Under the pieces are notes generated by a model that was not told where the DNA came from, ran no database searches, and saw only the letters and a program-made list of their open reading frames with translations. The translations under genes were made by a program, and so were the position numbers. Of a stretch of DNA of 64,000 bases, positions 9,050 through 53,000 are shown piece after piece (the first letter of the stretch is position 1; every line of letters starts with the position of its first letter). This DNA is from Alphaproteobacteria bacterium (GTDB lineage Bacteria; Pseudomonadota; Alphaproteobacteria; SP197): positions 2,048,001-2,112,000 of the forward strand of contig OZ245842.1 in NCBI GenBank assembly GCA_965228895.1, in the 5' to 3' direction.

Positions 9050-9060
9050 GGAGCCAACAC

Positions 9061-9834: not shown

Positions 9835-9850
9835 GCAAGGGAGAACTACC

Positions 9851-10933: not shown

Positions 10934-11056
10934 GGTTTTGTGCCTGCGCAGACCAGTGCCGGCCGACGCCCCCGCCCGGCAACCAATGGCAGCATCCTCG
11001 GGTCGGCCGGGCGGGGGCGTGGGCCGGTGATGCCTCGGTCGCCGCCAGGCAAAAAG

Positions 11057-12763: not shown

Positions 12764-12767
12764 CGGG

Positions 12768-13727: not shown

Positions 13728-13824
13728 GGTTCTCCGATGCCGGCAAGCGGCGGTTCCACGGCAGGGTATGCTAAGGAGCCGCTACACATGGATCAAGGCA
13801 ACAAGCATGAGGGAGCAGGATTGC

Positions 13825-15865: not shown

Positions 15866-15871
15866 CCTTGG

Positions 15872-22472: not shown

Positions 22473-23156
22473 ATGAGTACCACGTTTATTGTCGACTCCA
22501 ACCGCCTCTCAAGGGAGGGCATGGTTCGTCTCTTGAGCGATACAAACTTCGATGTCCTGGGTCACGCCGGTGACATTAGCGGTCTTGATGACGGCTTGGC
22601 CGAATCCAGCCCGCCCGATCTGCTGCTGCTCGATTTGCCGCGCGAGACGGAGGGCCTGAAAGAGCGTCTTATCGAGCTGCGTGAGCGCGCGCCCAACATG
22701 AAGGTCGTCGTGCTGACCACCTCGGTTCAACCGCGGCCGCTTGCCGAGTACTTCAGTGCCGGCGTCGATGGTTATCTGTTGAAGGATATCTCGACCGAAG
22801 CCCTGATCGGATCGCTCAATCTGGTTCTGGCTGGCGAGCGGGTGTTCCCGTCACAGCTGATCCCGCTCATTCTCCGTGGCACCTCGGCGATGCCGACCAT
22901 GGCGAACACGGCGACAGCGGAAGGCGCCAATCTGTCAGACCGCGAGCTTCAGATCCTCGGCTGCCTCGTCGAGGGTGCGTCCAACAAGATGATCGCGAAC
23001 CGCCTGAGCGTGACCGAAGCGACCATCAAGGTTCACGTCAAAAGCATCCTGCGCAAGATCAACGCACAGAACCGCACGCAAGCGGCCATCTGGGCGCTGA
23101 ACAACGGCATTGCTGCGGATGCCGGCTTGATGATGGGACCCTCATCGCCCAACTGA
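22473..23156 (+). CDS. NarL/LuxR family response regulator (REC + HTH), CsgD-like position
   Basis: REC with LLLLD, LT and GYLLK; HTH LSDRELQIL..GASNKMIA..TIKVHV..NRTQAA. Confidence 0.93.
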   Translation: MSTTFIVDSNRLSREGMVRLLSDTNFDVLGHAGDISGLDDGLAESSPPDLLLLDLPRETEGLKERLIELRERAPNMKVVVLTTSVQPRPLAEYFSAGVDGYLLKDISTEALIGSLNLVLAGERVFPSQLIPLILRGTSAMPTMANTATAEGANLSDRELQILGCLVEGASNKMIANRLSVTEATIKVHVKSILRKINAQNRTQAAIWALNNGIAADAGLMMGPSSPN

Positions 23157-23181
23157 GGGGATCCCACACTTGTGCGCTAAT

Positions 23182-23216
23182 GAGAATGCCGCCTCAAGGG
23201 GCGGCATTCTCTTTTT
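23182..23216 (+). terminator. Intrinsic terminator
   Basis: gagaatgccgcc-loop-ggcggcattctc followed by T5. Confidence 0.85.
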
Positions 23217-23514
23217 GGGCATCCGCCACCAACGAGCGGCGGCCGAGACGGCCTCGCTTGCACAAAGCAGCCGTCTGGCAACGTCACAGCTGTGCTTGGC
23301 GGGCGCGACGCCATGCCCCATGCGGGCTCTGGCCAACCGATACACCGATATCGTTTCGATGATCTCTTCGGCGTTCGCGCGGCGCGGCGATGGTCGAAGA
23401 ATCACTTCGCCGGCGATCTCGTCTTGCGGGAGTTAACCGCTCTACCGAGAGCGCCGGCGAAAGTTTGGCAGGAGAAAGCGCCAGGCCGAACCCGGCGCTG
23501 CTTACTCTCCGGTC

Positions 23515-24057
23515 TTATCCACCCAGGCCGAAGACCTGCGATGTCCACGTGTTGATTGCGTTCCCGGACCCACCGCCGAAGCCGTAGCTGCCGCCGAACG
23601 ACGGATAACCGCCGCCACCGGTCGTCGCGGCCACCAAGCGGAACGTCCAACTTGTGACGGTGATACCGGAGCTGGACCCGAAGCCGAGCAACAGCTGGCC
23701 GCCGTCGCCGCTTCCGGTGCCGACATTCTCGAAGAAGAGACCGCCCAGATCGAGGTCGCGACCGCGGAACTGCGGAATGATCTCGCCGCTGGCGCTGGTC
23801 ACGATCGGCACACGGCCGCCGCGGTTGTTCTGGGTGATGGTCAGCAGGGATCCGTCCGAAGCGCGCATGATGTTGTCGGGCGTCGCATTGAACAGCTGCT
23901 CGTTAATGATGGCCTGCCGCGCCGCCGTGCTCATGCCGACACCGCCGTCGGGCGTGTCGAACGAGAACGGCTCGTTGTTCAGTTGGGCGTTGGCCGATGC
24001 CACATGGAGCAGAGCTACTGCACCAATCATGGCTGCCACGGCTAAACGAAATCGCAT
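23515..24057 (-). CDS. Secreted Gly/Ser-rich protein, probable accessory subunit of the CsgG/HfaB system
   Basis: Sec signal ending ANA-Q, GGAGAG RBS, Gly-rich C-terminal half, GC-rich codon usage. Confidence 0.75.
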   Translation of the reverse strand: MRFRLAVAAMIGAVALLHVASANAQLNNEPFSFDTPDGGVGMSTAARQAIINEQLFNATPDNIMRASDGSLLTITQNNRGGRVPIVTSASGEIIPQFRGRDLDLGGLFFENVGTGSGDGGQLLLGFGSSSGITVTSWTFRLVAATTGGGGYPSFGGSYGFGGGSGNAINTWTSQVFGLGG

Positions 24058-24206
24058 CGGTTCTCTCCTGCCTTACAATGACGGGGCCGAACCTTTTGGC
24101 CCCCCTCATCGCAAATTAAGCCGTAATCTGGACCAAATAATCAAGTGGATTGCGCCAACCCGGTCTACAATCCCGCCTAATAACCTTGATCCACCCCTTT
24201 AGATCG

Positions 24207-24884
24207 TCAGTTCAGACTGGTCTCCAAAGACCGCGCGGCGGGCACGAATGCTTGAATTGCGGCGAAAACAGCAGCTTCTGTTCTGTTTCTAAGCTGCAAT
24301 TTACCCAAAAGGCTCCGTACCACGTACTTCACGTTGGCTTCGGTCATATCCAGTTCTTCGGATATCGTCCGGTTGCTCTTGCCTTCGCCAAGCAACGCCA
24401 GCACCTGCTGTTCGGTCGGCGTCAACGACGACAGAAGCTGCAGGCGCAGTTCGGTCACCGTAAACGACGGCGTCATAAAAGGCGGCACCAGGCAGTAACC
24501 ATCGAGGCTGAGCCGCGCGACCTCGGCCGTCAGCGGCAGTTGCTCATCAACGAACAACCAGGCATCAACCAACGACAAGAGGTTTGTTGCCTGCAGGAGG
24601 TCATCGCGCCTGAGCGCCACGACAATGGTCGCGCGCCGCGAGACCCTCAGCAGATCGGCATACTCCATATCATTCAGCTTGGTGTGCCAAACGATCACGA
24701 CATTGGGCCGGCCATTCTCGGAATTCTGCGTTGGCAAGTCCGACAGGCGCTTGGCCTGGTTGAGCTGAATGCCGTGCTCTTCGGCCATCGCCCGTTGAAG
24801 CTGGAGTTCGGGCGTAGAGCCCTCGGCTACAATGGCGACGTTGAGGGGTCGTGCAGCACTTGTTTCACTTGTTTGCATCCTCAT
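24207..24884 (-). CDS. LuxR family regulator with degenerate receiver-like N-domain
   Basis: C-terminal LTPTEQQVL..GKSNRTI..NVKYVV..NRTEAA HTH; no Asp at the expected phosphorylation site. Confidence 0.85.
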   Translation of the reverse strand: MRMQTSETSAARPLNVAIVAEGSTPELQLQRAMAEEHGIQLNQAKRLSDLPTQNSENGRPNVVIVWHTKLNDMEYADLLRVSRRATIVVALRRDDLLQATNLLSLVDAWLFVDEQLPLTAEVARLSLDGYCLVPPFMTPSFTVTELRLQLLSSLTPTEQQVLALLGEGKSNRTISEELDMTEANVKYVVRSLLGKLQLRNRTEAAVFAAIQAFVPAARSLETSLN

Positions 24885-25493
24885 GCAGTCCCTGTTCAGA
24901 ATTGGTCCCTAATTCTTGCATCACGTTGGTTCGCGCAAAGTGGTGCCTGGTTTTTTTATGCGGCACCTTTGTTGGGCAGATGACGAGCGCGGATGTCTTG
25001 CGACACCTGCGACCGGGTAACAACACGTTGGCTGAGCAAGACGCCTTGTTCATGGCGGCGTCAGGTCAACCGACAGAGCACGGTCTTGAGGCAGATCGCG
25101 CTCGCTCTATCGATCGGGCCGTTCGGCTTTTGACGAGTTTCCAAGCTTCTTAACCGCCCAATGCTACATGGGTGTTGAGAGATGCCAACACCACGACCTG
25201 CAGTTTGTCAAAAATCCGTGACTACACCACGGGTAAAAAGGTCTACGACTTTGGATGAGTGTTAACTAAATATTAAGAACCCGATTACCCTTTAGATAGT
25301 AGCCTATCCTTTTTAATTACGAGGAGAGAAGGGGGTAATCCCTTTTCCGGTGCGATTAGTACTTCTTAACTCTTACCTTTTCTGACCCCTTCCGTAAGCT
25401 TCAACGCACGAGATTTCACGTCATTGCCGGAGGCGATCCGGCGTACCCGGTTCCGACTGCGAGCGTTACCGGGTTTGAGGAGGGTCCAGCAAA

Positions 25494-26312
25494 ATGCGTC
25501 TATTCGTTCCTGCGGCAATTGCGGCTGTTGCTCTTGTTGTAACGGCTTGCAGCACCGGTCCCTACCCGAAGGAAGGCGTACAGCCTGCCTTCAGCTTCCC
25601 GGTTACCAGTAATGACACGCCTTACAGTCAGTGCCTGCGGGCGCTGAGCGAGGTTCAGGGTAACAATCTGCCGGTATTTGCTGTGGGCGAAGTCGCCGAC
25701 AAGACGGGCCAGATCAACTATGACGAAAACGGCTATGCGCTGTCGCAGGGCGTTTCCGAAATGGTGATCAGCGCGCTCGCCAAGACCGACAAGGCGAACC
25801 TGGTTGAGCGCTTGGACCTGCGCATCCCTCTCGCCGAAGTCCAGTTGGCCGAACAGGGCCGCCTGTCGCGCTCGGCTGATGAGTACACCGATCTTCCCGC
25901 CAGCGATTTTGTCATCGCCGGCGCTCTGACTGAGCTCAACTACAACATCGTCAGCGAAGGCGCCCAGCTGTTCATCGACGGCATTGGCGGCGGCGCCCGC
26001 ACGGTGGTCATCAACGTGGCGCTCGACATGCGCGTGATCAGCTCGCGTACCTTCGCTGTGCCCTTTGTGGTGAGCCTGCAGAAACAGATTTACGGGTTCG
26101 AAGTCGAAGCGAACGTGTTCCGCTTCTTCGGCGACACCCTGGTTGAGTTTGACGCCGGACGGATCAGGAATGAACCGCTCCAGCTCGGCGTCCGTTCCGT
26201 CGTTGAAATGGGTGTTTACCAGATCATGACGGAATTCCTTGGTCTGCCCGCGAGCGAGAGCTGCCGTCTCGTTGAGACAGACCATATGGCGTCGTACCTC
26301 GAGCAGCTCTAA
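25494..26312 (+). CDS. CsgG/HfaB family outer-membrane lipoprotein (curli/holdfast-anchor secretion channel)
   Basis: Lipobox VTAC; PVTSNDTPYS..CL, VGEVADKTG, LVER.D, GALTELNYN, VALDMR, KQIYG and EPLQLGVR motifs. Confidence 0.88.
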   Translation: MRLFVPAAIAAVALVVTACSTGPYPKEGVQPAFSFPVTSNDTPYSQCLRALSEVQGNNLPVFAVGEVADKTGQINYDENGYALSQGVSEMVISALAKTDKANLVERLDLRIPLAEVQLAEQGRLSRSADEYTDLPASDFVIAGALTELNYNIVSEGAQLFIDGIGGGARTVVINVALDMRVISSRTFAVPFVVSLQKQIYGFEVEANVFRFFGDTLVEFDAGRIRNEPLQLGVRSVVEMGVYQIMTEFLGLPASESCRLVETDHMASYLEQL

Positions 26313-26335
26313 ATCCTGAAAGGAGAATGGTAGTT

Positions 26336-27433
26336 ATGAATACGTTCGGTAAAGCGACCCTTCTGGCCGGCGCCTCCGCCGTTGCCATGGGTCTGGCCAC
26401 CACCCAGGCTTCCGCTTTTGAGGATGTCGATTGGGACTGGTACGCCAACATCTACGAGAAGATCTTCATCAAGGTTAAGATCGATCCCACATTCGATCCC
26501 TCGGGTCTGGTTCAGGTCGAGAAGCTTCAGATCTTTGTTGGCGACGTGAAGGCCAACGCTTGGGTCGACGCTGTCCTGCACAAGCCTGCCGCGCCTGGCT
26601 ACGAGATCAAGACTCTGACCTCGAGCACGACCGGTGAGTTCTCGGGCACGTTCGAAGGCGGCTTCAAGGGCGTTACCAAGGGCGTGGTTCTCGACGAAGA
26701 GATCGCCTACCTGAAGAAGGGCAAGAAATGCTCGGGCAACTGGTGGGATCGCAAGTGCGAAGACGTCCTGATTCCCAAGTACGTCGATGACAAGGATCCG
26801 TTCTATGGCGTGACCTACGGCAAGCTCGGCGGCACGTTCGGCGGCGAGTTCAGCTCGTACACCGAGTATGACGTGATCATTCCGGATCCGTTCACTCTTG
26901 ACCAGCTGCCGTTGGTTGAGATTGCGGCGACCGCGATCGGCAACGCCGAGAGCATCGACTCCGACGTGGCCGTGATGGTCCACGAAGGTCAGTTCGTCGT
27001 TGGTGATGGCGACGACGGTCACCTCCCGTATTGGGTTGGCGACGCCAACGCCCACACATCGCTGGCTGATGCGCTTCTCTACATGGCCCTCGACGGTCAG
27101 CTGGAGAAGGCCACCATCTCGGCCAATGCTGGCTCGTACTACATCCAGCAGGCTCAGGCTGACATCTCCGCGACTGCTGTTGCCAACTCGAACAGCATAA
27201 ACGTTGATGCCGCCTCGCGTGACGATGCGATCGTGATCGCTGACCTCACCCAGTTCGCGTATGCCGATGTCTCGGCCAACGCTTACCTGGGCGTGCACTA
27301 TCTCGACAACTATGTCGACCTCGGCACGATGGTTGATGCTGACGGCGTCCGCCAGGCTGTGACTTCGGTTACCGCCACGGCCGTTGGCAACGTCTCCAGC
27401 ATCACGGTCTGCGCCGTCAACTGCGGCGACTAA
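26336..27433 (+). CDS. Secreted HfaD-like protein with ATA(I/V)(G/A)N repeats; putative major structural subunit
   Basis: Signal peptide ending ASA-F; repeats ATAIGNA, ATAVANS, ATAVGNV; beta-rich; directly after hfaB-like gene (alternative start 26327). Confidence 0.65.
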   Translation: MNTFGKATLLAGASAVAMGLATTQASAFEDVDWDWYANIYEKIFIKVKIDPTFDPSGLVQVEKLQIFVGDVKANAWVDAVLHKPAAPGYEIKTLTSSTTGEFSGTFEGGFKGVTKGVVLDEEIAYLKKGKKCSGNWWDRKCEDVLIPKYVDDKDPFYGVTYGKLGGTFGGEFSSYTEYDVIIPDPFTLDQLPLVEIAATAIGNAESIDSDVAVMVHEGQFVVGDGDDGHLPYWVGDANAHTSLADALLYMALDGQLEKATISANAGSYYIQQAQADISATAVANSNSINVDAASRDDAIVIADLTQFAYADVSANAYLGVHYLDNYVDLGTMVDADGVRQAVTSVTATAVGNVSSITVCAVNCGD

Positions 27434-27471
27434 GACTGTGTGAGGTGTAAGGTTCGGGTGACAGTTTGATC

Positions 27472-27549
27472 ATCCGCAAGTGTTGGGAAGCCGGGATGCA
27501 GCAGGTGCTGCATCCCGGCGACCCTCCTCTCCCGCAAACACTCTTGGAT
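27472..27549 (+). other. Strong intergenic stem-loop without U-tract
   Basis: Perfect inverted repeat gccgggatgcagca/tgctgcatcccggc at 27490-27519, extended by imperfect outer arms. Confidence 0.75.
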
Positions 27550-27576
27550 CGGCAAATCCTGTTCGGAAGGAGAAGA

Positions 27577-27990
27577 ATGATGGTAACAAAGTTTCGGAAC
27601 ATCGCCGCCGCCCTGGCTGCTACGGCCGCTATCGGCGCAATTGCTGCGCCTGCCGGCGCGCAGATGTTCGAGGGCGCCTATCAGAACAACAACCGCGACG
27701 GCCTGAGCAGCGCTGTGGTGATGAAGCAGGTTGATGAAGGCCTGTTCTCGCAACAGCAGCCGGTTGTTTCCGGTGGCAGCAGCGGCGGCGGCGACATTCT
27801 GCTGTGCGGCTCCGACGAGTCACAGTCGTCCGCCACCGCCAACTCGTCCTGCATCATCATCGGTGACGGCGCCACCGCCATCATCGACATGGGCCAGGAC
27901 AGCCTTGGCGACCAGGACGCCAACGCGGAATCGAACCAGGAAGTCAACGGCGATCTGTCAGACGCCCTGGAGTCCCTTAGCGGCGGTTGA
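27577..27990 (+). CDS. Small secreted HfaA-like protein
   Basis: AAGGAG RBS; signal ending AGA-Q; Gly/Ser linker, SSATANS motif, Q/N/D-rich tail. Confidence 0.6.
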   Translation: MMVTKFRNIAAALAATAAIGAIAAPAGAQMFEGAYQNNNRDGLSSAVVMKQVDEGLFSQQQPVVSGGSSGGGDILLCGSDESQSSATANSSCIIIGDGATAIIDMGQDSLGDQDANAESNQEVNGDLSDALESLSGG

Positions 27991-28102
27991 TGCTTGTGGG
28001 CGTTCGACGTCTATGGCTCACATAGTTTTTCTCGTCTCCTGACCCACGTTCAGGGCCGAGCCTGAGAGATAAAAGGGCATCCCAGGATGTCAAAGCGGGA
28101 TA

Positions 28103-28143
28103 GCGCCCGCCCGAACGTCGAAAGACGATCAGGCGGGCGTTTC
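28103..28143 (+). terminator. Probable intrinsic terminator after the hfa-like operon
   Basis: cgcccgcc...cgtc-gaaa-gacg...ggcgggcg followed by ttt. Confidence 0.6.
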
Positions 28144-28370
28144 GCATTCACAGCCTTGAAACAAATTCAACGACGTATGGCGATATGCGTAGGGCGTGAC
28201 TGGTGTCATAGCCCATTGCGAACGAATGACGCATGGTGGTCGCGATCAGATCGAACACTGGGCGATGGCCGCCGGTTACCCAACCTTGTCCCGGTCACTG
28301 ACCTGATCGACGTCGCATAAGGGTCTCCTTGGGTTCTTTTGCAGCCTGCACCTGGGAAAGTGCATAAATC

Positions 28371-29813
28371 ATGCTTTTTTTGACAGATAGCTTGGGATCC
28401 GTCAGCGATCACGCCACGGAACGGCGTTGGTCGGGAACCGACATTGCCACGGCTGCCCGGCAGCGCCATAAGGCGCTTGTCGACGGTGGGGTCGGGCCAG
28501 GCGACACGGTCGCTTTGTGGCAGGCGGGCTCGGGCGCTTTTTTTGCCGATCTTCTTGGCGCTTGGGCTGCCGGGGCGGCGGTTGCCGTCCTCAACCCCGG
28601 CCTGACGCCAGAGGAGATCGACAAGGTGGTCGGCCACATTCATCCGAAAATGGTGCTGGTCGATGGCGAACTCGATAGGGGCCGCTCGATCTTCACGATC
28701 CCGGTTATCGACTTCGGGGCGTCGGTTGGGCCGGACATGGCGTCCCGGACGGACCGGCGCCCTGCTCTCGACGATCCCGCCCTTATGTTGTTTACGTCCG
28801 GCACGACGGGTACGCCTAAGGGCGTCGTGCACACGTTCCGCTCGCTTGTCGCGCGACTGGCGCTGAACGAGACCTTTATGGGACGGGCCGATATGCGCCG
28901 GACGTTGTGCACACTGCCGACCCATTTCGGCCACGGCTTGATCGGCAATTGCCTGACACCGCTGCTTGATGGCGGCGATGTCGTGTTGATGGCCGGCAGC
29001 GACGCGCGTGCGGTGATGCAGCTTGGCGCGACCCTTGACCGGTACGCGATCACCTTCATGAGTTCGGTGCCTGCCTTGTGGAAGATGGCACTCAAGATGT
29101 CGAAGCCGCCGCAGGACGCAACGCTCCGTCGTGTTCACATTGGATCCGCGCCGTTGTCCGCCGATCTTTGGTCCAAGGTCGTCGATTGGTGCGGCACCAG
29201 GAACGTCGTCAACATGTATGGCATCACCGAAACCGCCAACTGGATCGGCGGTGCGTCTGCCGAAGACTTCGAGCCCCAGGACGGCCTGGTCGGCAGGTTG
29301 TGGGGCGGCCAGGCGGGCGTTCTGGGCGAGAGTGGTGACGTGCGAAGTGAAGGCGAGGGCGAGATCCTCATTCAGGCTCCGTCTCTTATGGCCGGCTATT
29401 TTGACCTTGATGATCTGACATCCCAGGTCCTCAAGGACGGTTGGTTTCATACCGGCGATATCGGCCGCCTTGAAGGCGGCGTCATCCGTCTGACGGGCCG
29501 TGAGAAGTACGAGATCAACCGAGCCGGCATGAAAGTCCATCCCGAGGACATCGATTTGCTTCTGGAGCGTCATGAAGGCGTCGTGGAGGCGTGTGCCTTC
29601 GGCGTCCCTGATCCGATCGTCGGCGAGGTCGTCTGCGTTGCCGTGGTGCTTGACGATGGAAAGGACATCAATGACATCAAGGCGTGGTGCGCCCAACGGC
29701 TGGTTCGCGAAAAGAACCCGGAGAAGTGGTTTGTTCTGGATGCGATACCCAAGACAGACCGAGGCAAGATAAATCGAAAGGTAGTCGCCGACGCCTGCTT
29801 TTCGACGATTTGA
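28371..29813 (+). CDS. Stand-alone ANL adenylate-forming enzyme (acyl-CoA/acyl-ACP ligase)
   Basis: FTSGTTGTPKG, YGITE, WFHTGDIG, GREK and PKT..GK motifs. Confidence 0.93.
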   Translation: MLFLTDSLGSVSDHATERRWSGTDIATAARQRHKALVDGGVGPGDTVALWQAGSGAFFADLLGAWAAGAAVAVLNPGLTPEEIDKVVGHIHPKMVLVDGELDRGRSIFTIPVIDFGASVGPDMASRTDRRPALDDPALMLFTSGTTGTPKGVVHTFRSLVARLALNETFMGRADMRRTLCTLPTHFGHGLIGNCLTPLLDGGDVVLMAGSDARAVMQLGATLDRYAITFMSSVPALWKMALKMSKPPQDATLRRVHIGSAPLSADLWSKVVDWCGTRNVVNMYGITETANWIGGASAEDFEPQDGLVGRLWGGQAGVLGESGDVRSEGEGEILIQAPSLMAGYFDLDDLTSQVLKDGWFHTGDIGRLEGGVIRLTGREKYEINRAGMKVHPEDIDLLLERHEGVVEACAFGVPDPIVGEVVCVAVVLDDGKDINDIKAWCAQRLVREKNPEKWFVLDAIPKTDRGKINRKVVADACFSTI

Positions 29814-29886
29814 ACCCGTAACCGCGGCGGCCCGGTCCGCGGCTTATGTGCAACCCACCATTACCTTGCCCACTCGGAGTTTCCCC

Positions 29887-30474
29887 ATGCCAGCGAACAC
29901 ACCTCGCCCCAAACCGATCAGGCTGGTGACCGACCGGTTCTTGCTGCGAACGTTACGGCCGCAAGACGTCACGCCGTCGCTTTTGGCGTGGATTGCCGAT
30001 CCTGAAGTCATGGAGCCGATCAACCAGCGGCCCATTCAGATCTCCCGCGAGCGGATGGCAGGCATCATCGCTTCATGCGACGGCGTCGAAGATACCTACA
30101 TCGGCATCTTCGAGCGCAAGTCCAGCACGTATATCGGCAACTACATGCTCCACTTCGATCGAAAGGAGCTGACGGTGACCTTCGACGTTCTTATTGGCGA
30201 TAAGTCCTTCTGGGGCCAAAAGGTTGTCCTTGAGACCCGTCCGGTGCTGTTGGACCATGTTTTCAAGTACGGCTTTGAGAAGGCAGTTGGCCGCCCGCCG
30301 GCGCGAAACTTCGCGTCGGTTTTCAACTACAAGACGGAAGGTTGGCGATTGGAGGGCATCCTGAAAGGTCAGCTGAAGCACCGCTATGGCGAGGGTCGGC
30401 TGGATCAGTATGAGTTTGGACTTTTGAAAGACGAGTGGCTCGCAATGCGTAAGGAGAGGCGTGATGACGATTAA
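29887..30474 (+). CDS. RimJ/RimL-type GNAT N-acyltransferase (copy 1)
   Basis: LVTDRFLLRTL, IGDKSFWG and N.ASVFNYKTEGWRLEG motifs; GGAG RBS. Confidence 0.88.
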   Translation: MPANTPRPKPIRLVTDRFLLRTLRPQDVTPSLLAWIADPEVMEPINQRPIQISRERMAGIIASCDGVEDTYIGIFERKSSTYIGNYMLHFDRKELTVTFDVLIGDKSFWGQKVVLETRPVLLDHVFKYGFEKAVGRPPARNFASVFNYKTEGWRLEGILKGQLKHRYGEGRLDQYEFGLLKDEWLAMRKERRDDD

Positions 30475-30703
30475 CCTTGATTGTGCTCGAGAAATCCTTG
30501 CGGCCGCGCTCGAGATAACGACCGATCGTGTCCCGGGTTCCGCACGGCTGGGCGACCCCGAGGCTTGGGACAGCTTGGCCCATTTGCGGTTGATCCTGGC
30601 GATCGAGGAAAAACTGGGGCGCGAACTCGGCGCCGAACAGATCATCGAGATCGAGTGCCTCGAGGATGTCGCGGGATTGCTGGACGGTCATGCCACCGAC
30701 TGA
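30464..30703 (+). CDS. Acyl carrier protein
   Basis: About 79 aa, acidic, with WDSLAHL phosphopantetheine Ser; AAGGAGAGG RBS. Confidence 0.9.
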   Translation: MTINLDCAREILAAALEITTDRVPGSARLGDPEAWDSLAHLRLILAIEEKLGRELGAEQIIEIECLEDVAGLLDGHATD

Positions 30704-31337
30704 CAAGAAACCGGTCCCGGTCAGACTTACCACCGAACGCTTTCTTTTGCGTTCACTGGAACCGGGTGATGCGACGGAGCGGTTCGCCGCCTGGCTGGCC
30801 GACCCGGAGGTGATGAAGCCGCTCAACAAGCCGTCAAGCCAACTGACCGTCCAGCAGCTGCAGGGAATCATCCTGGCCTGCGACGGAATCAATACCTTTC
30901 AGATCGGCATTTTCGAGCGTCGGTCAAAAACGCATATCGGCAACTTCTACGTCTACCTTGATAACGTGCATCAATTGGCGACCTTTGACGTGTTGATCGG
31001 TGACACCGGCTTTTGGGGTAGCAAGGTGGTCAACGAGTGTCGCGCTGCCTTGCTCGATCATTTCTTCCGCGTGCGCGGTGTCGAAAAGGTCATCGGTCGA
31101 CCGCTCGCGCGAAACTTTTCCTCTGTTTTCAACTACAAGACCCAGGGCTGGCATCTGGAAGGTATTCTGAAAAGCCACTGGAAATCGTTCTATGGTGAAG
31201 GCCGGCTCGACCAGTACAAATTCAGCATGCTGAAGGATGATTGGCGGTCCCGACAAAAGGCCAACCAGCCCACACCCAAACAACCCAAACAGAAAAAGGG
31301 CGGTCGCAAAAAGACTGTGGTCGGCTCAAGTCGTTGA
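30690..31337 (+). CDS. RimJ/RimL-type GNAT N-acyltransferase (copy 2)
   Basis: Clear paralog of 29887-30474 (RNFSSVFNYKTQGWHLEGILK, YGEGRLDQY). Confidence 0.88.
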   Translation: MPPTDKKPVPVRLTTERFLLRSLEPGDATERFAAWLADPEVMKPLNKPSSQLTVQQLQGIILACDGINTFQIGIFERRSKTHIGNFYVYLDNVHQLATFDVLIGDTGFWGSKVVNECRAALLDHFFRVRGVEKVIGRPLARNFSSVFNYKTQGWHLEGILKSHWKSFYGEGRLDQYKFSMLKDDWRSRQKANQPTPKQPKQKKGGRKKTVVGSSR

Positions 31338-31596
31338 GCAGGCATTCCACCCGACCTCTGATGCGCTACCCGTCTATCATCAACCGCAGATCTACGTCGC
31401 ATGTCTCAGAATGCCCACAGTTGTGTCCCACAACCGCACGGTGCCGGCCTGGCGGCCGGATCGGACCTACCGTGTCAAACGGAAGCTACACCGATGATCT
31501 GGAAGGGCCGTCGATTGGGTGCGTGGGCAGGTTTGTGGGTTCTGTTATGATGAGAGGTGCGGGGCATCCGTGTAGGATCAGAGTTAAGGAGAGCGT

Positions 31597-33501
31597 GTGA
31601 CGAGGTATCGACACAGGCCTTCGGCGAATAAGTTAGGCAGCACGCCATCACAACGCCGGTTGTTCGGGCGCCGTACGTTTGTGCTTGTGCTGCTGTCCGG
31701 TCTGATCGCCGCTGCAACGGTTGGCTCCTTTGTCACGAGTAGTGTCCGCGCTGTGGAGCCGTACTTCTGTATCGAGTTGGTGCTGTCACGAAACTGGCCG
31801 GCTGCGCAGTTCTACTGCGATGCCGCATCGATGCCCGACGACATCGGCATCGTACTGGCTGAGGGCATCGCTTACTACTTTGGTGCGCAAAACGCCGGCG
31901 ATGTGGCCCATGCCGGACGACTGTGGCGAAGCCTGCCACCATTGGCGAATGTAGGCGAGTGGCGCAATGTCGCCGGCGTCTATGACGCGGAAATCGACAT
32001 CATCAAGAGTGAAGCCGCGGGTCTTGACCGTCTGGCCCAGTACAAACTGGGCGTGTTGCATGAGACCGGCCATCTGACGACAGCCGATCCGCCGGTTGCG
32101 GTGTTCCGCTACCAGCAAGCCGCCAACGCCGGATTGCCCGAAGCGCACATTGCGCTCGCCAGACTCTTTCAGCATGGCATCGGTATCGAGGCGGATCCGG
32201 TCGCCGCGCAGCAGCATCTTTTGGCAGCGATCGAAGCGCGACCGGCACTGCGCCTTCCGGCACGACCTGCCCCGACCGAGGCGGTTGCCGAAGCGACCGC
32301 TGTCGAAGTACCTGCCGATGGCGATTTGCTTTCAGGCGAAGAAGGCGAGGGTGAAGGCGAGGGTGGTATTCTGGCCGCCATCACCGGCGAAACGACCGGC
32401 ACGCAGATCGTCGTTGAGACCGGCACCGTCCAAACCGCGGCGATCGATCCGAGCATGTCAGCGGCAGAGTTGGAAGCTCTCGAGACGTCCGTGGTGCAAG
32501 GGCAGCTACGCCGCAGAACTATCGTCGGCGCGTCATCTGATGACAGTGTGTCTGGCGGTGCCGGCGGTGGAACTGAAGTTGAATCAACGGCCGAAGCAAC
32601 TGTCGCCGCCGTGTCGTCCGGCGACGACGCAACATCGGTTACCGATAGCACTAGCGAAGCCGAGCTTGGCGCCGGGATTTTGGCAGGCCTTCTCGGTAAC
32701 GATGACGTTGTTGCTGAAGGCGCATCAGAATCCGACGGGCAGCCCATCGTTCAGCTTTGGGAAACCGATACCGGCGTTGCGATCGTGCCACCCGAAGCGC
32801 CTTCTGCAGCCACCGAACTCGTGGAACCGTCCGAGCAATCCGAGACTGCGCTTGCGGCCGATGAGACAAGGGAGGCGGGATCGCGGTGGGTGCCTCCCGC
32901 GGAGGTCGCCGCGCTTTACTACCCCAAAGAGCCGCTTGAAGAGACGACCGCAGACTTGGCGCCCGTGCCAAACCAGGAGTCCACGGGAACGGGTCAGGCC
33001 GTCGACGGCGGCGATTCCGTCAGCGTTTCGGCCGGACGTCTCGATACCCGGCAGGCCAATGACCAGCCGGACTTTTCCTGCGCCGAGACGACGACGGGTG
33101 CAACGATGGCCATGCCGGTGATTCGCGAAGAGGGCGACCTCAGCGATGAAGCGACCGATGACGAACAACGTCTTGTTGAGCCGCTCAGCCCTGACCAGTT
33201 ATCAATGCTCGAAGAGGGGTTTCGCGAAAAGGCCGCCGGTAATTTTGATGGCGCGCTCGCTGCCTGGAAGCCGCTCGCCATGGAAGGGTTGCCGACGGCG
33301 CAATACCTTGTGGGCTTGCTCTATCTCACCGGCGATGCGCTGCCGCGCAATCTGCGAGCGGCCTACGCATGGTTCAGTCTGGCGGGCGATCGCGGTCATC
33401 AACTGGCGAACTGCGAACGCCTTCGCTTGGCCGAACGTCTGTCGCCAGACGATATCGCCCTGGCCAATGACCTTGCCAGTACGCTCGCGCCGATCCCTTA
33501 G
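31597..33501 (+). CDS. Sel1-like repeat protein with N-terminal TM anchor and long acidic linker
   Basis: AQYKLGVLHETG, AHIALARLFQHG and AQYLVGLLYLTG..AYAWFSLA repeats. Confidence 0.82.
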   Translation: MTRYRHRPSANKLGSTPSQRRLFGRRTFVLVLLSGLIAAATVGSFVTSSVRAVEPYFCIELVLSRNWPAAQFYCDAASMPDDIGIVLAEGIAYYFGAQNAGDVAHAGRLWRSLPPLANVGEWRNVAGVYDAEIDIIKSEAAGLDRLAQYKLGVLHETGHLTTADPPVAVFRYQQAANAGLPEAHIALARLFQHGIGIEADPVAAQQHLLAAIEARPALRLPARPAPTEAVAEATAVEVPADGDLLSGEEGEGEGEGGILAAITGETTGTQIVVETGTVQTAAIDPSMSAAELEALETSVVQGQLRRRTIVGASSDDSVSGGAGGGTEVESTAEATVAAVSSGDDATSVTDSTSEAELGAGILAGLLGNDDVVAEGASESDGQPIVQLWETDTGVAIVPPEAPSAATELVEPSEQSETALAADETREAGSRWVPPAEVAALYYPKEPLEETTADLAPVPNQESTGTGQAVDGGDSVSVSAGRLDTRQANDQPDFSCAETTTGATMAMPVIREEGDLSDEATDDEQRLVEPLSPDQLSMLEEGFREKAAGNFDGALAAWKPLAMEGLPTAQYLVGLLYLTGDALPRNLRAAYAWFSLAGDRGHQLANCERLRLAERLSPDDIALANDLASTLAPIP

Positions 33502-33655
33502 GCTCAACACTCACTCGCCGTTGGCTGGTGGCGTCTTCAGCAGCAACACAGGAGTTTTGCGAACGCGCGTGATCGTCCCTTAGGGGGGTGCTTTTATCCG
33601 GTAGTCCGTGGTTGATACGCTGGCTCAGCCCACGACGCGGAATGACCAAATCCGC

Positions 33656-34240
33656 TTAGGGGGAGACGTTCTCGTCCCCTTCGGTCCAGGCCCAGGTGGT
33701 GTTGCTGGGCACCGAAGCGGGTGCCGCCTCGGCCTGTGCCGTCGTCACTTCGACGTCCGAGCACATCATCATTTCGACGGGGAAGCTGTTGCCGGGCAGA
33801 CAGACAGGTTGGACGCTGCAGACCTTTTCCGTCCGCGATGACATCGCGATGTTTGTCTGCATGCCGGTGACCACCGACTGTTCACCGTCGGACGACGCGT
33901 CGGCGACCAATTCTGTTTCCGAAGCAACGTCGTTCGTTTTGGCTTCCTCGGCTGTCGCGACGGGCACGCTTGTGTTCCCGGCGCGCGTCTCAACTTCAAC
34001 GTCCTTCGAGGCACCGCCGGGCTGCTCGCCATCGATCATGGCCAAGCAGCTTTGCGACACCGAATCATCGAGGCCGCTCAGGGCTTCCATGACGTTGGGC
34101 GCTTGGCTCGCCGCGGCTTGCCCGGGGTCGACCAGGGCGTCCAAAACCATGCCGGCGGCGGTTATGCCCAGCGTCGCGGGCTCGCAGGCCGCCGTTGTCA
34201 GCAACACGGTCGTTGCTGCGGGGATCATCAGGGAGCGCAT
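33656..34240 (-). CDS. Hypothetical lipoprotein with Cys-rich C-terminal motif
   Basis: Lipobox TAAC; CSVQPVCLPG..MMMC. Confidence 0.65.
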   Translation of the reverse strand: MRSLMIPAATTVLLTTAACEPATLGITAAGMVLDALVDPGQAAASQAPNVMEALSGLDDSVSQSCLAMIDGEQPGGASKDVEVETRAGNTSVPVATAEEAKTNDVASETELVADASSDGEQSVVTGMQTNIAMSSRTEKVCSVQPVCLPGNSFPVEMMMCSDVEVTTAQAEAAPASVPSNTTWAWTEGDENVSP

Positions 34241-34491
34241 GGCCAGGACTATACGCTAGTGCCGCTACCAAGTCTGATGGGTATAGGTCTTAGCCCCTTT
34301 GCCTTGATGATAAGCCAAGAGGTCTATCTTTCGGGCAGAAGACGCTCTTAAGAGGTAGAGATCCCATTTGTAGTAGACCTCCCGATACTTGGTTTACGAC
34401 CCATGCCCACAATCGTTTTTTGCCTGTCCTTGGTAGATTACTTCGCGCCCCAGGTATGAGCCGGTGGCGATTGGGATAGACAGCATAGTGG

Positions 34492-36555
34492 GTGACGGCG
34501 ATGGCAAACATCAACCTTAAGGAAATGTATGCCATCGCGGCGCAGCACTATTTGGCCGGTCATCATGAAAAGGCCGCAGCCACCTACCGCCGAATCCTTA
34601 AGATTGAGCCCGGTCGCACCGACGCCGTTCATTTGCTCGGCAAGATCGAGTACTCGCGACGCCAGTTTGAGACGGCCCTGGGGCTGTTCGAGCAATGCCT
34701 CGACATGGTGTCGGATGACGATCTGAAATTGTTGACGGCGTCGCACCGCATGCGCGGCGAGACGCTGAGATCGCTGGGGCGCCATGCGGATGCTGTCGAA
34801 GCCTGCCGTAGGGCGCTCGAACTTCAGCCTGACAGCACGCCCGCCCTTATCAGCATGGGCGCGGCACTGCGCGGCCTTGGCCGTTTGGACGACGCGTTGG
34901 CGTGCCTGGACTGTGTGATCGAGCTTGAACCGGAAATGGATGTTGCCCACAACAATCGCGGTAATGTGTTGCGCGAGATGGGTCGCTCGGCCGAAGCGAT
35001 CGCGTCCTATCGGCACGCGCTTGCCATCAATCCGCGGATGATCGACGCGCACAACAACCTCGCCAATGAATTGCGCAATCTCGGTGAGCTTGAGCAGGCG
35101 ATTGCCTCGTATGAGCAAGCGTTGAGCATGCGCCCGGATGACCCTGTCTTCCTGGTGAATCTGTTTAATGTCCTGAGCTATGCCTGCGCGTGGGAACGGC
35201 GCGCCTGGGTTGCCAATCGTCTCGCCAAGGTAACCGACGACCAAGTTCAGCGGGGCGTCTTGGTAACGGAGACTCCATTTGTCTGCAGCCTGCGCAGCGA
35301 TGACCCCGCCTTGATGCACGACATTGGAACGGCCGCGCTGGTCGCTGCCTCCCGCAAGGCGCCGACGCAGCGTAGTGATTGGCACAAGTCCGTCGCAGCG
35401 CCGGCGTCATCGGACCGGCTGCGTGTCGGGTACTTTATCGACGGCTTGGACAACCAGCCGGCGCGTCGCAAGCTGCAGACGCTGGCCCAAAGCCACGACC
35501 GTGATCGGTTTTCCGTCTTCGCTTACTGCTGCGGCAACGAGCTTAACCGTCAAAATCAGATCGAACGTGTCTGCGATGGCTATACAAACCTTCGGCACCT
35601 GGACGATGTTGAGGCAGCCAAGCGCATTGCCGCCGATGGCCTTGATGTCTTGGTCGACCTGTCGGGTCATCAACCGGGAAGTCGCCTGGGTGTCGTGGCG
35701 CAGCGCCCGGCACCGGTCCAGATGACCTGGCCAAATCTGGTCGTCACCACGGGGCCGTCGTGTGCAGATTTCTTGGTCACCGACAACGTGACGGTGCCGC
35801 CGGCTGATGCCCATCACTTTGGCGAATCTCTGCTTTATCTCCCGGCCGGCCATCAGGCCTTGGGACATGAGTCGCTGCCAATTCCGGCGCACCCCGATCG
35901 TCCGTCGCTCGGATTGCCGAGTGATGGCATTGTCTTTGCCTGTTTCGGTCGCGCGCTGCGCTTTGACCCCACTGCTTTTGACTGCTGGATGAAAATTCTA
36001 GCCGCTGTACCCGACAGTGTCCTCTGGCTGGGTCGGATGAACCGTCTGACGGTGACAAACCTGCGCGCGGTCGCCAAAGCATCTGGCATCGACCCAAACA
36101 GACTGATCATTGCCGGGCGATCGCGGGCCAAGACATCACATTTGAGCCGCCTGGCTTGCGTCGACGTGTGGCTCGACACCCACAACCAGAGCAGCGATAT
36201 GGCGTTGATGGACGCTCTTTGGGCTGGCGTTCCTGCTGTTACGCTCGCTGGCAAGACGGCGCCGGCGCGCGCTGGCGCTAGCCTCTTGAAGGCCGCTGGA
36301 CAGGACGGCTTGGTGGTCGATGGGCCGCGTGCCTATATGGCGCTTGCGATCGAATTGGCGAACCAGCCCGAGAGGCGGGACGCTATCGCCGCGCAACTGG
36401 TGACGGGACGCGATGCCGGCGCCCTGTTCGACAAAGCCGTCGTGATCAGCCGGTTCGAGCAGATGCTGGAACGTGTCGCTGGACGCGAGCCCGAACTCAC
36501 CATGCTTGAGTCCAAACTGCCCAGTCACGCGGGAGTTTCTGGCGCCGCTTTGTGA
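34492..36555 (+). CDS. TPR + GT41 (O-GlcNAc transferase/SPINDLY-like) protein, divergent
   Basis: Multiple TPRs (AHNNRGNVL, AHNNLANEL); RLRVGY, DVLVDLSGH, RPAPVQ, VPDSVLWL and DALWAGVP motifs. Confidence 0.88.
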   Translation: MTAMANINLKEMYAIAAQHYLAGHHEKAAATYRRILKIEPGRTDAVHLLGKIEYSRRQFETALGLFEQCLDMVSDDDLKLLTASHRMRGETLRSLGRHADAVEACRRALELQPDSTPALISMGAALRGLGRLDDALACLDCVIELEPEMDVAHNNRGNVLREMGRSAEAIASYRHALAINPRMIDAHNNLANELRNLGELEQAIASYEQALSMRPDDPVFLVNLFNVLSYACAWERRAWVANRLAKVTDDQVQRGVLVTETPFVCSLRSDDPALMHDIGTAALVAASRKAPTQRSDWHKSVAAPASSDRLRVGYFIDGLDNQPARRKLQTLAQSHDRDRFSVFAYCCGNELNRQNQIERVCDGYTNLRHLDDVEAAKRIAADGLDVLVDLSGHQPGSRLGVVAQRPAPVQMTWPNLVVTTGPSCADFLVTDNVTVPPADAHHFGESLLYLPAGHQALGHESLPIPAHPDRPSLGLPSDGIVFACFGRALRFDPTAFDCWMKILAAVPDSVLWLGRMNRLTVTNLRAVAKASGIDPNRLIIAGRSRAKTSHLSRLACVDVWLDTHNQSSDMALMDALWAGVPAVTLAGKTAPARAGASLLKAAGQDGLVVDGPRAYMALAIELANQPERRDAIAAQLVTGRDAGALFDKAVVISRFEQMLERVAGREPELTMLESKLPSHAGVSGAAL

Positions 36556-37001
36556 GTCCGCGCGTTCCTGGCATGAGAATCTCGCGATGCTGGGGGGCGG
36601 TCGCACACGGTGGCCAAAGGATCATGTTTCACCGCTACCGCAATTCCGCGCTGTCAATCGTCTACTACCCATCATTACCAAAAGGTAGCGCGACGCTCGG
36701 TTTCGAGAACCCCGAGCCGCAAAACGAGCCGGCTCCGGGGATGAACAATCCGAACAGGAGCGTTGCCGGGTATTTCGACATGCACAACCCGCTGTCGACA
36801 CCGCGTGCTTACTTCCCGGTCGAAGAGGATGACGTCGTGGTTTTCCCGTCAAATGCGTGGCATGGCGTGGCGCCCGGCAAACAGACCCAACCACGGATAT
36901 CAATCGTGGCGGATACCTTGATCGTGACCAATGCAATGAAGGGCGATGAATCTCTTCTGCCGCCGGTTTCGATGTGGCGGCGCTTAGGCGACAAGGCTTA
37001 G
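36552..37001 (+). pseudogene. Truncated putative 2OG-Fe(II) oxygenase (TIGR02466-like)
   Basis: W....H.Y.NS.LSIVYY, VVFPS..WHGV and PRISI motifs; N-terminal part missing and HxH appears as HxY. Confidence 0.55.
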
Positions 37002-37359: not shown

Positions 37360-37710
37360 TCAGGGCGCGCCTAAGTCGCCCAGCATCGATTGCGACTGCA
37401 AATCCATGAGGTAAAGGCGCAACTCGTGGAGATCGCGGTCTGTCTTCTGGAATGACAGCCTCACCGGATGCGCGGTGGCGAACCACTCGCGCAGGCGAAG
37501 GTGCGACCAGTCGACGACCTGCACAACCTTGCCGAGTTCCCGCGCTTGACCTAAACCGATAGTCTCGCCGGGCATGACGTGGCAGGTGTTGCATTGGTCG
37601 TCCGCAAGTGATTTGCCGGAGCTTAGATCGGTGGCCGATAGGGTGGATGAATGGATTGTTGCCGTGGCCAAGCCCACAGAAATCAACAGGAAAGTGCGCA
37701 AGCCGGGCAT
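37360..37710 (-). CDS. Small periplasmic c-type cytochrome
   Basis: Signal peptide plus CNTCH heme-binding motif. Confidence 0.75.
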   Translation of the reverse strand: MPGLRTFLLISVGLATATIHSSTLSATDLSSGKSLADDQCNTCHVMPGETIGLGQARELGKVVQVVDWSHLRLREWFATAHPVRLSFQKTDRDLHELRLYLMDLQSQSMLGDLGAP

Positions 37711-38051
37711 GGAGTTCTACCTCTGATCCATAAAGAATGCTTTTGGTGTGATCGCCGACATGGACCCGGATGAAAGATGCGGTTATCCGTTGTGGCGGGG
37801 CGTTCTAGCGTATGTGGTCGCCAGTCTAAGGCAGTGGGTGGCGCTTGACACTAACACTTCAGTCTTATGGCAAAGTTGGTGTCTTAGACTTGCGGTACGT
37901 AAGGATTTCTTCGTAAGGATCAATGCTAAATCGGCTGGTCAGAAGTATTACTCGCGAATAATCGAAATGATTCCGTTTGCTTTCTCGATCAACTCGGCGC
38001 GAACCAACACACTCGGCACAAGCTGGTGTGAATGACAACGGAGGAGACACT

Positions 38052-52849: not shown

Positions 52850-53000
52850 GCTGGCGATCGTCTCCAGTTGAATCCGCTCTGATGCTATGAATAGAGCAGA
52901 TTCACCTGCTTTGACGGAATCGCGAAGCGACTTTATCAAAAAACGGGATCTGCTCTAACGGCGCGCGGACTTTACAAGGACGCCGGTCCGGCCGCAAAAG

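Follow-up and report, generated by a model that had tools for sequence, protein, structure and literature searches.

A conserved module with a presumed HfaB-like export channel

The DNA analysed here is a 64,000-nt stretch of an alphaproteobacterial contig (OZ245842.1; the window), and its subject is a secretion locus in which the gene for an HfaB-like lipoprotein of the CsgG family is followed by genes for secreted repeat proteins. Genes were called from a list of open reading frames (ORFs), followed by Pfam and NCBIfam scans, and we divide the locus into a core (22377–27990) and an adjoining cassette of putative tailoring genes (28371–37001). G+C content is lower across the island (0.56–0.60 versus ~0.63 in the GC profile of the window), and on both flanks the Pfam scan of the window ORFs found ordinary metabolic genes. 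An earlier note on this DNA had proposed a type VIII-like (CsgG/HfaB-type) export locus with secreted repeat proteins; every gene that it listed was recovered at or near its place by ORF calling, Pfam and NCBIfam, and the proposal holds, with a CsgG domain at 86.5 bits and an HfaB match at 167.1 bits. The core contains the following features.

22377–23156 (+): RR1, response regulator with a LuxR/GerE DNA-binding domain (Pfam GerE 71.5 bits, Response_reg 42.8 bits); start possibly 22473, as in the earlier note
23182–23211 (+): terminator-like hairpin 3′ of RR1, a 13-bp stem with 8 GC pairs followed by TTTTT; a consensus match only
23515–24057 (−): Gly-rich secreted protein (P0003), third putative cargo; signal peptide
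24207–24884 (−): LuxR2, LuxR-family regulator without a receiver domain (GerE 54.2 bits)
25494–26312 (+): HfaB-like, CsgG-family lipoprotein (P0004), presumed channel (PF03783 86.5 bits, lipobox VVTAC)
26327–27433 (+): P368 (P0001), HfaD-like secreted repeat protein of 368 aa; three ATAxxN motifs, signal peptide; start probably 26336
27466–27990 (+): P174 (P0002), HfaA-like small secreted SATANS protein; signal peptide, two Cys; real start probably 27577, matching its homologs

These calls bear out the arrangement first described, namely a CsgG/HfaB lipoprotein (25494–26312) followed by two secreted ATAxxN/SATANS proteins (26327–27433 and 27466–27990), with a third secreted, Gly-rich protein that has a signal peptide (23515–24057) and two LuxR regulators, RR1 (22377–23156) and LuxR2 (24207–24884); an additional, third regulator, RR3, lies at 38632–39219.

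Homologs of P368 number at least 224 in the protein collection, nearly all without a name. A scan of one genome per species yielded at least 116 stretches encoding P368 relatives, 80 of which were taken into a comparison of loci (counts out of 81 include one congener in addition, and several loci end at contig boundaries). Judged by record title, the carriers are Alphaproteobacteria including Ferrovibrio, Tagaea, Micavibrio, Parvibaculum, Pelagibius, Oceanibaculum, Thalassospira, Thalassobaculum, Micropepsaceae, Neomegalonema and others. By tblastn with the window proteins, an HfaB-like gene lies directly 5′ of the P368 homolog in 75/80 loci and an RR1 homolog lies 5′ of the module in 68/80; LuxR2 matched in 47/80, many of these matches overlapping the helix-turn-helix (HTH) of RR1. 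Hidden Markov models (HMMs) of the P174 and Gly-rich families, built from the first matches and then run over the 81 loci, found the former in 74 and the latter in 54. Unsupervised clustering of the ORFs around 79 loci recovered these five families again, every other cluster being confined to 18 loci or fewer. All five module genes are present in the window (HMM scores of 498 bits for the HfaB-like protein, 327 for P368, 133 for P174 and 181 for the Gly-rich protein), and the gene order HfaB-like, HfaD-like, HfaA-like, seen here, recurs in 75 of the 80 related loci. Across lineages the channel is 58–75% identical and the 368-aa protein merely 27–45% (tblastn). In a family-level sample searched with the window protein, P368 was present in three genomes of this genus and in none of 16 genomes from four sister genera.

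The trio of channel, HfaD-like and HfaA-like genes is also found on Vibrio alginolyticus and Photobacterium plasmids, where it is annotated as a 'CsgG/HfaB family protein' followed by two 'hypothetical proteins'. In the locus taken from V. alginolyticus plasmid NZ_CP082309.1 (L193, 8953–10885) an HfaB-like gene precedes those for a short HfaD-like protein (222 aa) and an HfaA-like protein (131 aa); the trio adjoins the repB–parAB genes of the plasmid, and an Hpt-domain gene comes next. Such a compact trio on a Vibrio plasmid suggests that the module has spread horizontally into Gammaproteobacteria.

Several variants of the module were seen among the related loci. A second small HfaA-like subtype (QQMGRxGYxFPxR...YNSSSTSIxNxNxVxQ) stands in place of the two-Cys subtype in Ferrovibrio- and Oceanibaculum-type loci (L003, L019, L023, L026, L040, L055, L059, L065 and L079), and a 323-aa Sel1 protein often follows the gene for this subtype (13 loci). 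In other taxa the module is followed by genes for shorter proteins of the Sel1 (13 loci) or TPR (18 loci) kind. Six loci (L048, L049, L051, L052, L056 and L065) come from metagenome-assembled genomes titled Flavobacteriaceae, Mycobacteriaceae or Bifidobacterium; their channel genes are 60–67% identical, and the titles look like binning or taxonomy errors.

Relation to the holdfast anchor and to curli

The presumed channel matches the CsgG domain PF03783 well above threshold (86.5 bits versus a cut-off of 20.8) and has a Cys after its signal sequence. Scored against NCBIfam, it reaches 167.1 bits with the HfaB model NF037935 (cut-off 300) and 48.6 bits with the CsgG model NF011731 (cut-off 505). 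The gene is present in a single copy in the genome (profile search, 166.4 bits), and its product is 33–40% identical to those of Caulobacterales HfaB genes that adjoin hfaD.

All three cargo candidates, P368, P174 and the Gly-rich protein, carry Sec signal peptides, and none of them gave a Curlin-repeat, CsgE or CsgF match in Pfam even at E ≤ 10, in keeping with the absence of csgA/B repeats noted earlier. An AFxxVDWxW motif at the N-terminus and three ATAxGNxxS repeats characterise P368, which belongs to no Pfam or NCBIfam family (Pfam also at E ≤ 10); a few of its homologs carry precomputed Pfam labels, PF27294 and PF27277. In an alignment of 30 homologs, A-F..W.W at the mature N-terminus and T-A-x-x-N / A-T-A-x-G-N in the three repeats are invariant, and because of this invariance the ATAxxN motifs are not a chance pattern. 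P174 has the core motif LxCG...SSATANSSCIIxxxxxxIxxGQDSxGDQ with two invariant Cys, the alignment of its homologs showing C77, G78, C92, I94, Q107 and G111 to be invariant in the family. The Gly-rich protein, whose mature N-terminus reads QLNNEPFSF...GGVGMS and which has no Pfam or NCBIfam family, has the module AQ-x-N-x-P-[FWY]-x-F near that end in common with the P174 family; hhalign gave 94.7% (E 6.2e-8) for 39 columns, some of them signal peptide. This common module may be a channel-targeting or docking segment.

For comparison with the holdfast anchor (Hfa) proteins, HfaD and HfaA sequences were collected from 81 sampled genomes of the order with the best class-level HfaD match, 42 of which scored above the cut-off in each search; two loci of one genome (G337) were excluded. 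The curated models for HfaD (NF037936, cut-off 100 bits) and HfaA (NF037934, cut-off 50 bits) gave no match at E ≤ 10 in the present genome, which is 98.7% complete, and both found the Caulobacter control. Alignment of families by hhalign links P174 to HfaA (96.5%, E 7.4e-10, 38 columns) and P368 to HfaD (94.7%, E 6e-8, 78 columns); alternative registers of the latter alignment (71.5% and 58.8%) are expected of a repeat protein. The negative control, the channel family against HfaD, gave 0.8%, and the crossed comparisons, in which only the motif is in common, gave 30% (P174 against HfaD) and 44% (P368 against HfaA). The profile searches suggested in the earlier note cut both ways: HfaB is the best model but stays below its cut-off and the HfaA and HfaD models find nothing, yet remote links to both HfaA and HfaD emerge from hhalign. 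The Gly-rich protein was rejected as an HfaA or HfaD relative (39% against HfaA, in the signal-peptide region only, and 4% against HfaD). It was likewise rejected as an HfaE relative, at 0.2% against four HfaE sequences; HfaE was taken to be a Cys-rich protein with PHPASQV, CNERSLLR and DGGVG motifs, and this comparison covered the Gly-rich family only.

The module resembles Hfa in several respects. In size the proteins lie close to the NCBIfam models (272 aa versus 264 positions for the channel, 368 versus 374 for P368, ~137 versus 115 for P174), and the best family match of the CsgG-family lipoprotein is HfaB. Like the 368-aa family, the HfaD alignments show a repeated (S/T)ATAxGNxxS that runs up to the C-terminus, and the HfaA alignments show one ATAxGN-type motif followed by xVxSxQxNxGxxTA, to which the single repeat and following xQxxxGxQ of the small secreted protein correspond. 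A third secreted protein is encoded nearby in both cases. The differences are as consistent. HfaB falls under its cut-off and the HfaA and HfaD models find no match, the gene order is B-D-A here and A-B-D in Hfa, and a LuxR response regulator and a Gly-rich protein unrelated to HfaE are conserved parts of the present module. Its carriers are Rhodospirillales-, Micavibrio-, Parvibaculum-, Pelagibius-, Thalassospira- and Micropepsaceae-type genomes as well as Vibrio plasmids, with stalked Caulobacterales not among them, and a link to holdfast polysaccharide is a feature of Hfa. With curli the module has in common a CsgG-domain outer-membrane lipoprotein, Sec-dependent repeat-protein cargo and a LuxR-family (CsgD-like) regulator adjoining the structural genes; unlike curli, it has no curlin repeats, CsgE, CsgF or CsgC (Pfam scans of the island proteins), and its channel is far nearer HfaB (167 bits) than CsgG (48.6 bits).

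Since the HfaA and HfaD models find no match and there is a single HfaB-like gene, these are not canonical hfaABD genes. The failure of all curated thresholds, the B-D-A order and the added regulator and Gly-rich protein make the system a sister of Hfa, not a member of it. Judged by sequence, the core is a widespread, unnamed sister family of the Caulobacterales Hfa system, itself curli-type (type VIII-like).

To examine how the cargo proteins might assemble, structures were predicted. The AF2 model of P368 is all-beta with long hairpins (mean pLDDT 66.5; 80–94 in the C-terminal repeats). A Foldseek search of this model against the PDB gave no match at E ≤ 0.001, the best being the FapC amyloid 9u4u (E 0.049), and VIA matches to FapC (Z 3.0), two SufD-type beta-helices (2.5 and 2.4) and the CsgA fibril (2.2) were set aside as too weak. 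Complex prediction for mature P368 with P174 reached a score of 0.68, the best control scoring 0.00; in the benchmark 116 of 157 solved complexes and 2 of 215 mismatched pairs scored as high, a calibration that is only rough because our own alignments were used. Prediction runs had at least 81% of contacts in common, with a partner pLDDT of at least 56. The predicted interface joins residues 298–326 and 342–360 of P368 with residues 83–125 of P174 in parallel register (303:104, 305:106 and so on), and this parallel, in-register arrangement suggests that the HfaA-like repeat of P174 extends the HfaD-like repeat stack of P368. The model supports, without demonstrating, co-assembly of P368 and P174 after export through the HfaB-like channel. 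According to PMC6707917, HfaB is required for the surface placement of HfaA and HfaD and is likened to CsgG, and SDS-resistant HfaA multimers depend on HfaD; the predicted interaction between P174 and P368 parallels that dependence.

In the mechanism that we propose, the HfaB-like lipoprotein would be an outer-membrane channel through which Sec-delivered P368 and P174 are exported, probably together with the Gly-rich protein, which is similar to P174 at its mature N-terminus. Outside the cell, the single P174 repeat would stack in parallel register on the last two P368 repeats, and this stacking could give rise to a beta-rich, amyloid-like fibre or anchor. Conserved synteny suggests control of the operon by a LuxR-type response regulator.

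In marine RNA libraries (four runs, two studies), contigs extend over the 3′ part of the channel gene's end and over most of the P368 gene at 90–99% likeness, bridging the junction between the two, and shorter pieces fall on the response regulator and Gly-rich genes. As this evidence consists of contigs, neither transcription nor a single transcript is proven by it. Over 28.0–39.3 kb there is just one 35-nt piece (29431–29465), within the first cassette gene, and for the same reason this scant cover says nothing on expression of the cassette.

The cassette downstream of the module

Directly 3′ of the core lies the cassette, beyond which the island closes with genes for a cytochrome c and an IalB-like protein and then RR3. 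The features of this part, and one distant relative of P368 found elsewhere in the window, are as follows.

28371–29813 (+): adenylate-forming (ANL) enzyme, here AMP-ligase (AMP-binding 208.6 bits, AMP-binding_C 52.5 bits)
29848–30474 (+): GNAT acyltransferase 1, Acetyltransf_3 type (PF13302 37.8 bits)
30461–30703 (+): stand-alone carrier protein, ACP/PCP (PP-binding 23.6 bits, cut-off 20.8; WDSL serine motif)
30666–31337 (+): GNAT acyltransferase 2, Acetyltransf_3 type (PF13302 45.2 bits)
31597–33501 (+): Sel1-repeat protein, membrane-anchored (Sel1 66.2 bits; N-terminal hydrophobic anchor, long acidic low-complexity linker)
33656–34240 (−): small lipoprotein-like protein, sequence MRSLMIPAATTVLLTTAAC...
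34492–36555 (+): TPR + GT41 protein (PF13844 203.9 bits, several TPR families)
36552–37001 (+): short 2OG-Fe(II) oxygenase-family protein, 2OG-FeII_Oxy_5 (PF13759 46.7 bits)
37360–37710 (−): small secreted c-type cytochrome, CNTCH (translation, tblastn)
37977–38573 (+): IalB-like secreted protein (PF06776 23.4 bits, signal peptide)
38632–39219 (+): RR3, further response regulator with LuxR output (Response_reg 99 bits, GerE 69.7 bits); end of the lower-GC island
60969–62219 (+): P0127, orphan distant P368 paralog, secreted, of 416 aa (P368-family HMM 61.8 bits, E 1.7e-18)

The downstream gene series given in the earlier note is present in full, with a correction to the lipoprotein, whose true ORF is on the minus strand (33656–34240); the overlapping plus-strand frame 33696–34259 looks non-coding. 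In a PDB sequence search, the best solved relative of the AMP-ligase is the oxalate-CoA ligase 5ie0 (179 bits), and GNAT 2 and the 2OG protein had no match; the latter matches TIGR02466 at model positions 93–194 of 201 only. The 33656–34240 protein matches no Pfam or NCBIfam family. The TPR-GT41 protein matches human OGT (368 bits) and Xanthomonas XcOGT (2jlb, 159 bits, residues 106–665), with the TPR array and GT41 catalytic domain of OGT-like enzymes matched over their full length in sequence, and is presumably cytoplasmic because it has no signal peptide. A flagellin glycosylation island was considered and rejected, as Pfam gave no match to flagellar or to nonulosonic-acid or amino-sugar synthesis genes among the ORFs scanned (9.8–64 kb of the window).

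Synteny of the island extends to all three species of the genus, which we compared using the congeners G381 and G380. For flanking genes the background amino acid identity to the window has a median of 89% in G381 (range 70–94, n = 16) and of 93% in G380 (range 80–96, n = 10). Identities for the island genes are given below.

Channel, LuxR2 and RR1: G381 98–99%, G380 98–99% (RR1 98% and LuxR2 99% in both)
P368: G381 77%, G380 45%
P174: G381 88%, G380 63%
AMP-ligase: G381 80%, G380 67%
GNATs: G381 52–78%, G380 52–55%
ACP: G381 66%, G380 62%
Sel1 protein: G381 70%, G380 74%
Lipoprotein: G381 74%, G380 74%
GT41 protein: G381 90%, G380 90%

These values delimit a hyper-diverged block (45–88%) that spans the fibre and acylation genes, from P368 to the lipoprotein, between conserved flanks. 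Surface-antigen loci with their modifying genes often show such diverged blocks. With two comparisons only, and plain adjacency of the genes, the hyper-divergence is a hint and not a test. The number of GNAT genes also varies, with two copies here (29848–31337), three in G381 (8289–10494 of its locus, L127) and one in G380 (13485–14102 of its locus, L002). The 2OG gene (36552–37001) had no tblastn match in either congener locus, making this the only genome of the three that has it.

Outside the genus the association between module and cassette is absent. Of 79 related loci, 58 extend at least 9 kb downstream, and the AMP-ligase/GNAT/ACP triad accompanies the module in one of these, that of the congener G380, where AMP-ligase, GNAT, ACP and Sel1 matches lie 3′ of the module; the count outside the genus is 0/57. 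Weak tblastn matches to GT41 were TPR-only segments of 390–510 nt in 17 of the 19 loci that gave one, and one locus (L026) has a distant full-length GT41 (27% identity) 4.4 kb off and on the opposite strand. The cassette beside an Hfa-like module is a feature particular to this genus. In six Pelagibius loci (L016, L025, L027, L028, L033 and L042) a small cytochrome c gene lies just 3′ of the P174 homolog, and in four of the six an IalB-like gene is there too. In the window both genes are found on the far side of the cassette, in Pelagibius next to P174, so that 28371–37001 looks like an insertion. Among the 80 loci, IalB-like homologs are found near the module in 12 (tblastn), and cytochrome c (CNTCH) and IalB-like genes travel with the module in Pelagibius and in some Parvibaculum loci.

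We also searched 300 other genomes of the class for orthologs of the AMP-ligase, fetching stretches of up to 20 kb (shorter at contig ends). Orthologs with 51–60% identity were found in 11/300, with an adjacent GNAT in 10/11 and both GNAT and ACP in 8/11, and none of the 11 loci had an HfaB-like, P368, P174, Gly-rich, Sel1 or GT41 match. The contexts of the triad elsewhere are an O-antigen-type cluster, a TPR-sulfotransferase, FemAB pairs with a ShlB transporter, a C39-ABC exporter with an OEP, and plain metabolic genes; orthologs in such differing contexts suggest a portable acylation unit. In comparison with other N-acylation triads, the present one has an orthologous counterpart in the O-antigen-type cluster of L184 (GT4, Wzy_C, WbqC and a DegT aminotransferase) and others beside FemAB/ShlB or C39-ABC exporter genes, and it differs from them in having genes for Hfa-like cargo and for a Sel1 protein on its flanks. 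Beside one orthologous triad (L180, 12261–14168) is a TPR + sulfotransferase fusion, which recalls the TPR + GT41 protein here, the transferase being different.

The cassette would then be a genus-specific insertion of three parts: a probably portable AMP-ligase/GNAT/carrier-protein acylation triad that is found in unrelated contexts too; a putative envelope Sel1 protein with a lipoprotein; and an OGT-like, presumably cytoplasmic TPR-GT41, joined in this genome alone by the small 2OG oxygenase. Its connection with the fibre is unproven and rests on adjacency and common hyper-divergence, not on conserved co-occurrence. The cassette may equally act on another envelope molecule.

Readings of the locus and further features of the window

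The account that we consider fairly probable is a joint one, in which the core is an Hfa sister family exporting HfaD- and HfaA-like cargo and the cassette is a genus-specific insertion whose link to the fibre is unproven. Several observations speak against it. The links to HfaA and HfaD are short repeat-motif alignments (38 and 78 columns) in Ala/Thr/Asn-rich sequence of low complexity, nothing in the genome matches the curated model of either protein, and the order is B-D-A here versus A-B-D in Caulobacter. We infer export by the HfaB-like protein from its sequence; the P368 model is of moderate quality (pLDDT 66.5) and has no significant structural match (Foldseek 0.049, VIA Z 3.0), and the complex score has its rough calibration. 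An alternative is that these are canonical hfaABD orthologs, a true holdfast anchor tethering an Hfs-type polar polysaccharide encoded elsewhere. HfaB as the top-scoring NCBIfam family for the channel, the remote profile similarities to HfaA and HfaD, the second HfaD-like paralog at 60969–62219 and GDP-mannose genes at 51434–54772 would fit such an anchor. It is nevertheless improbable, given an HfaB score of 167 bits against a cut-off of 300, HfaA and HfaD models that find Caulobacter and nothing at E ≤ 10 in a 98.7%-complete genome, the different gene order, a Gly-rich protein that is not HfaE-related, and the presence of the module in many non-Caulobacterales lineages and on Vibrio plasmids, HfaA and HfaE being stated in a preprint (bioRxiv 10.1101/2022.07.20.500906) to be among eleven proteins confined to Caulobacterales. 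A curli system proper, with a CsgG channel and CsgA/CsgB-type curlin subunits, is more improbable still: the CsgG Pfam domain (86.5 bits) and the appearance of FapC (Z 3.0) and the CsgA fibril (Z 2.2) among the 4 of 48,161 chains at VIA Z ≥ 2, far below significance, have to be set against a CsgG equivalog score of 48.6 bits (cut-off 505) and the lack of any Curlin-repeat, CsgE, CsgF or CsgC Pfam match in the scanned island proteins, for the three secreted ones even at E ≤ 10. That the system is neither canonical curli nor canonical hfaABD, as first proposed, agrees with the genome-wide lack of HfaA and HfaD matches at E ≤ 10 and the sub-threshold HfaB score, and that it is undescribed agrees with our full-text literature searches, which found no paper on this sister module nor on tailoring genes beside a CsgG/HfaB system.

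The remaining evidence against the joint account concerns its second half, and comes from the reading favoured in the earlier note, that the cassette is dedicated tailoring machinery and that fibre proteins in this genus are acylated (from AMP-ligase to carrier protein to GNATs) and/or O-glycosylated by GT41. The cassette is directly 3′ of P174 and co-oriented in 3/3 species of the genus, and the 380-nt gap between P174 and AMP-ligase showed no strong terminator-like site in a scan for terminators and promoters that gave 23 terminator-like sites versus 17.9 expected. The block from P368 to the lipoprotein is at 45–88% amino acid identity, against 89% and 93% for the background and 98–99% for channel and regulators, and it is the overall closer relative, G380, that has the most diverged P368 (45%), P174 (63%), AMP-ligase (67%), GNAT (52–55%) and ACP (62%). 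The GNAT copy number of 1, 2 or 3 recalls surface-antigen loci that swap subunit and modifying genes together, and modification by GT41-type or TPR-glycosyltransferases has precedents on secreted adhesins and flagellins (HMW1C, FlmG). We still hold dedicated tailoring to be unlikely, if by no means negligible. The triad is found in 0/57 non-genus loci with at least 9 kb downstream and occurs without Hfa-like genes in 11/11 other loci, and no tailoring-type family is among the conserved neighbours of the module. The GT41 protein, at 90%, shows no more than background divergence and falls outside the hyper-diverged block, and it lacks a signal peptide whereas the cargo is Sec-exported. The cassette holds no sugar-nucleotide synthesis genes (Pfam), and neighbouring genes share any recombination block whether or not they are functionally joined. 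As tailoring machinery of this secretion system the cassette is thus not supported beyond one genus (1/58 loci, a congener). The neighbourhood survey that the note had called for nearly found what would count against it, namely no co-occurrence outside the genus (0/57), but within the genus the two are together in 3/3 species, co-oriented and in a common diverged block.

We also think it unlikely that the Hfa-like fibre of the genus is a modified, antigenically variable surface polymer, with P368, P174, the triad, Sel1 protein and lipoprotein forming one hyper-variable allelic block, the GNATs acylating or aminoacylating the subunits and the OGT-like enzyme possibly glycosylating them. In that case the block may be swapped or diversify in one piece, bounded by the highly conserved channel and regulator genes on one side and by the GT41 gene on the other. 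If true, this would be the first tailored (modified) type VIII/Hfa-type fibre; the cassette is of importance only with a genuine tailoring link.

For the core, which we read as an Hfa sister family, the implications are more general. The holdfast anchor is treated as Caulobacterales-specific in the literature, as the same preprint has it for HfaA and HfaE, and here a sister system, made up of HfaB-, HfaD- and HfaA-like proteins plus a regulator of its own, appears to extend across many free-living, predatory and marine Alphaproteobacteria and Vibrio plasmids, the partner genes of the HfaB-like channel being annotated just as hypothetical. In the groups that carry it, the core module can be tested as a candidate surface fibre, anchor or adhesin, and it offers a second, independent family in which to study the assembly of HfaA- and HfaD-type repeats.

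Some further features of the window were noted. The paralog P0127 (60969–62219) has the same ATAxGN motifs as P368 (genome search, E 3.8e-8); its neighbours are an NYN-domain gene and folK, and the sole HfaB-like gene is 34 kb away. Orphan HfaD-like paralogs similar to it are found in both congeners (G380:C290 and G381:C29). On the minus strand at 51434–54772, 15 kb 3′ of the island, are genes for a GDP-mannose pyrophosphorylase/isomerase and a GDP-mannose-4,6-dehydratase-like epimerase. Finally, a 6.8-kb segment (9047–15871) represents a strain- or species-specific insertion or deletion, as blastn found nothing to match it in the contig of congener G381, which is syntenic otherwise; the segment encodes a luciferase-like monooxygenase, an HpcH/HpaI aldolase and an FAD oxidoreductase and has two family-less ORFs.

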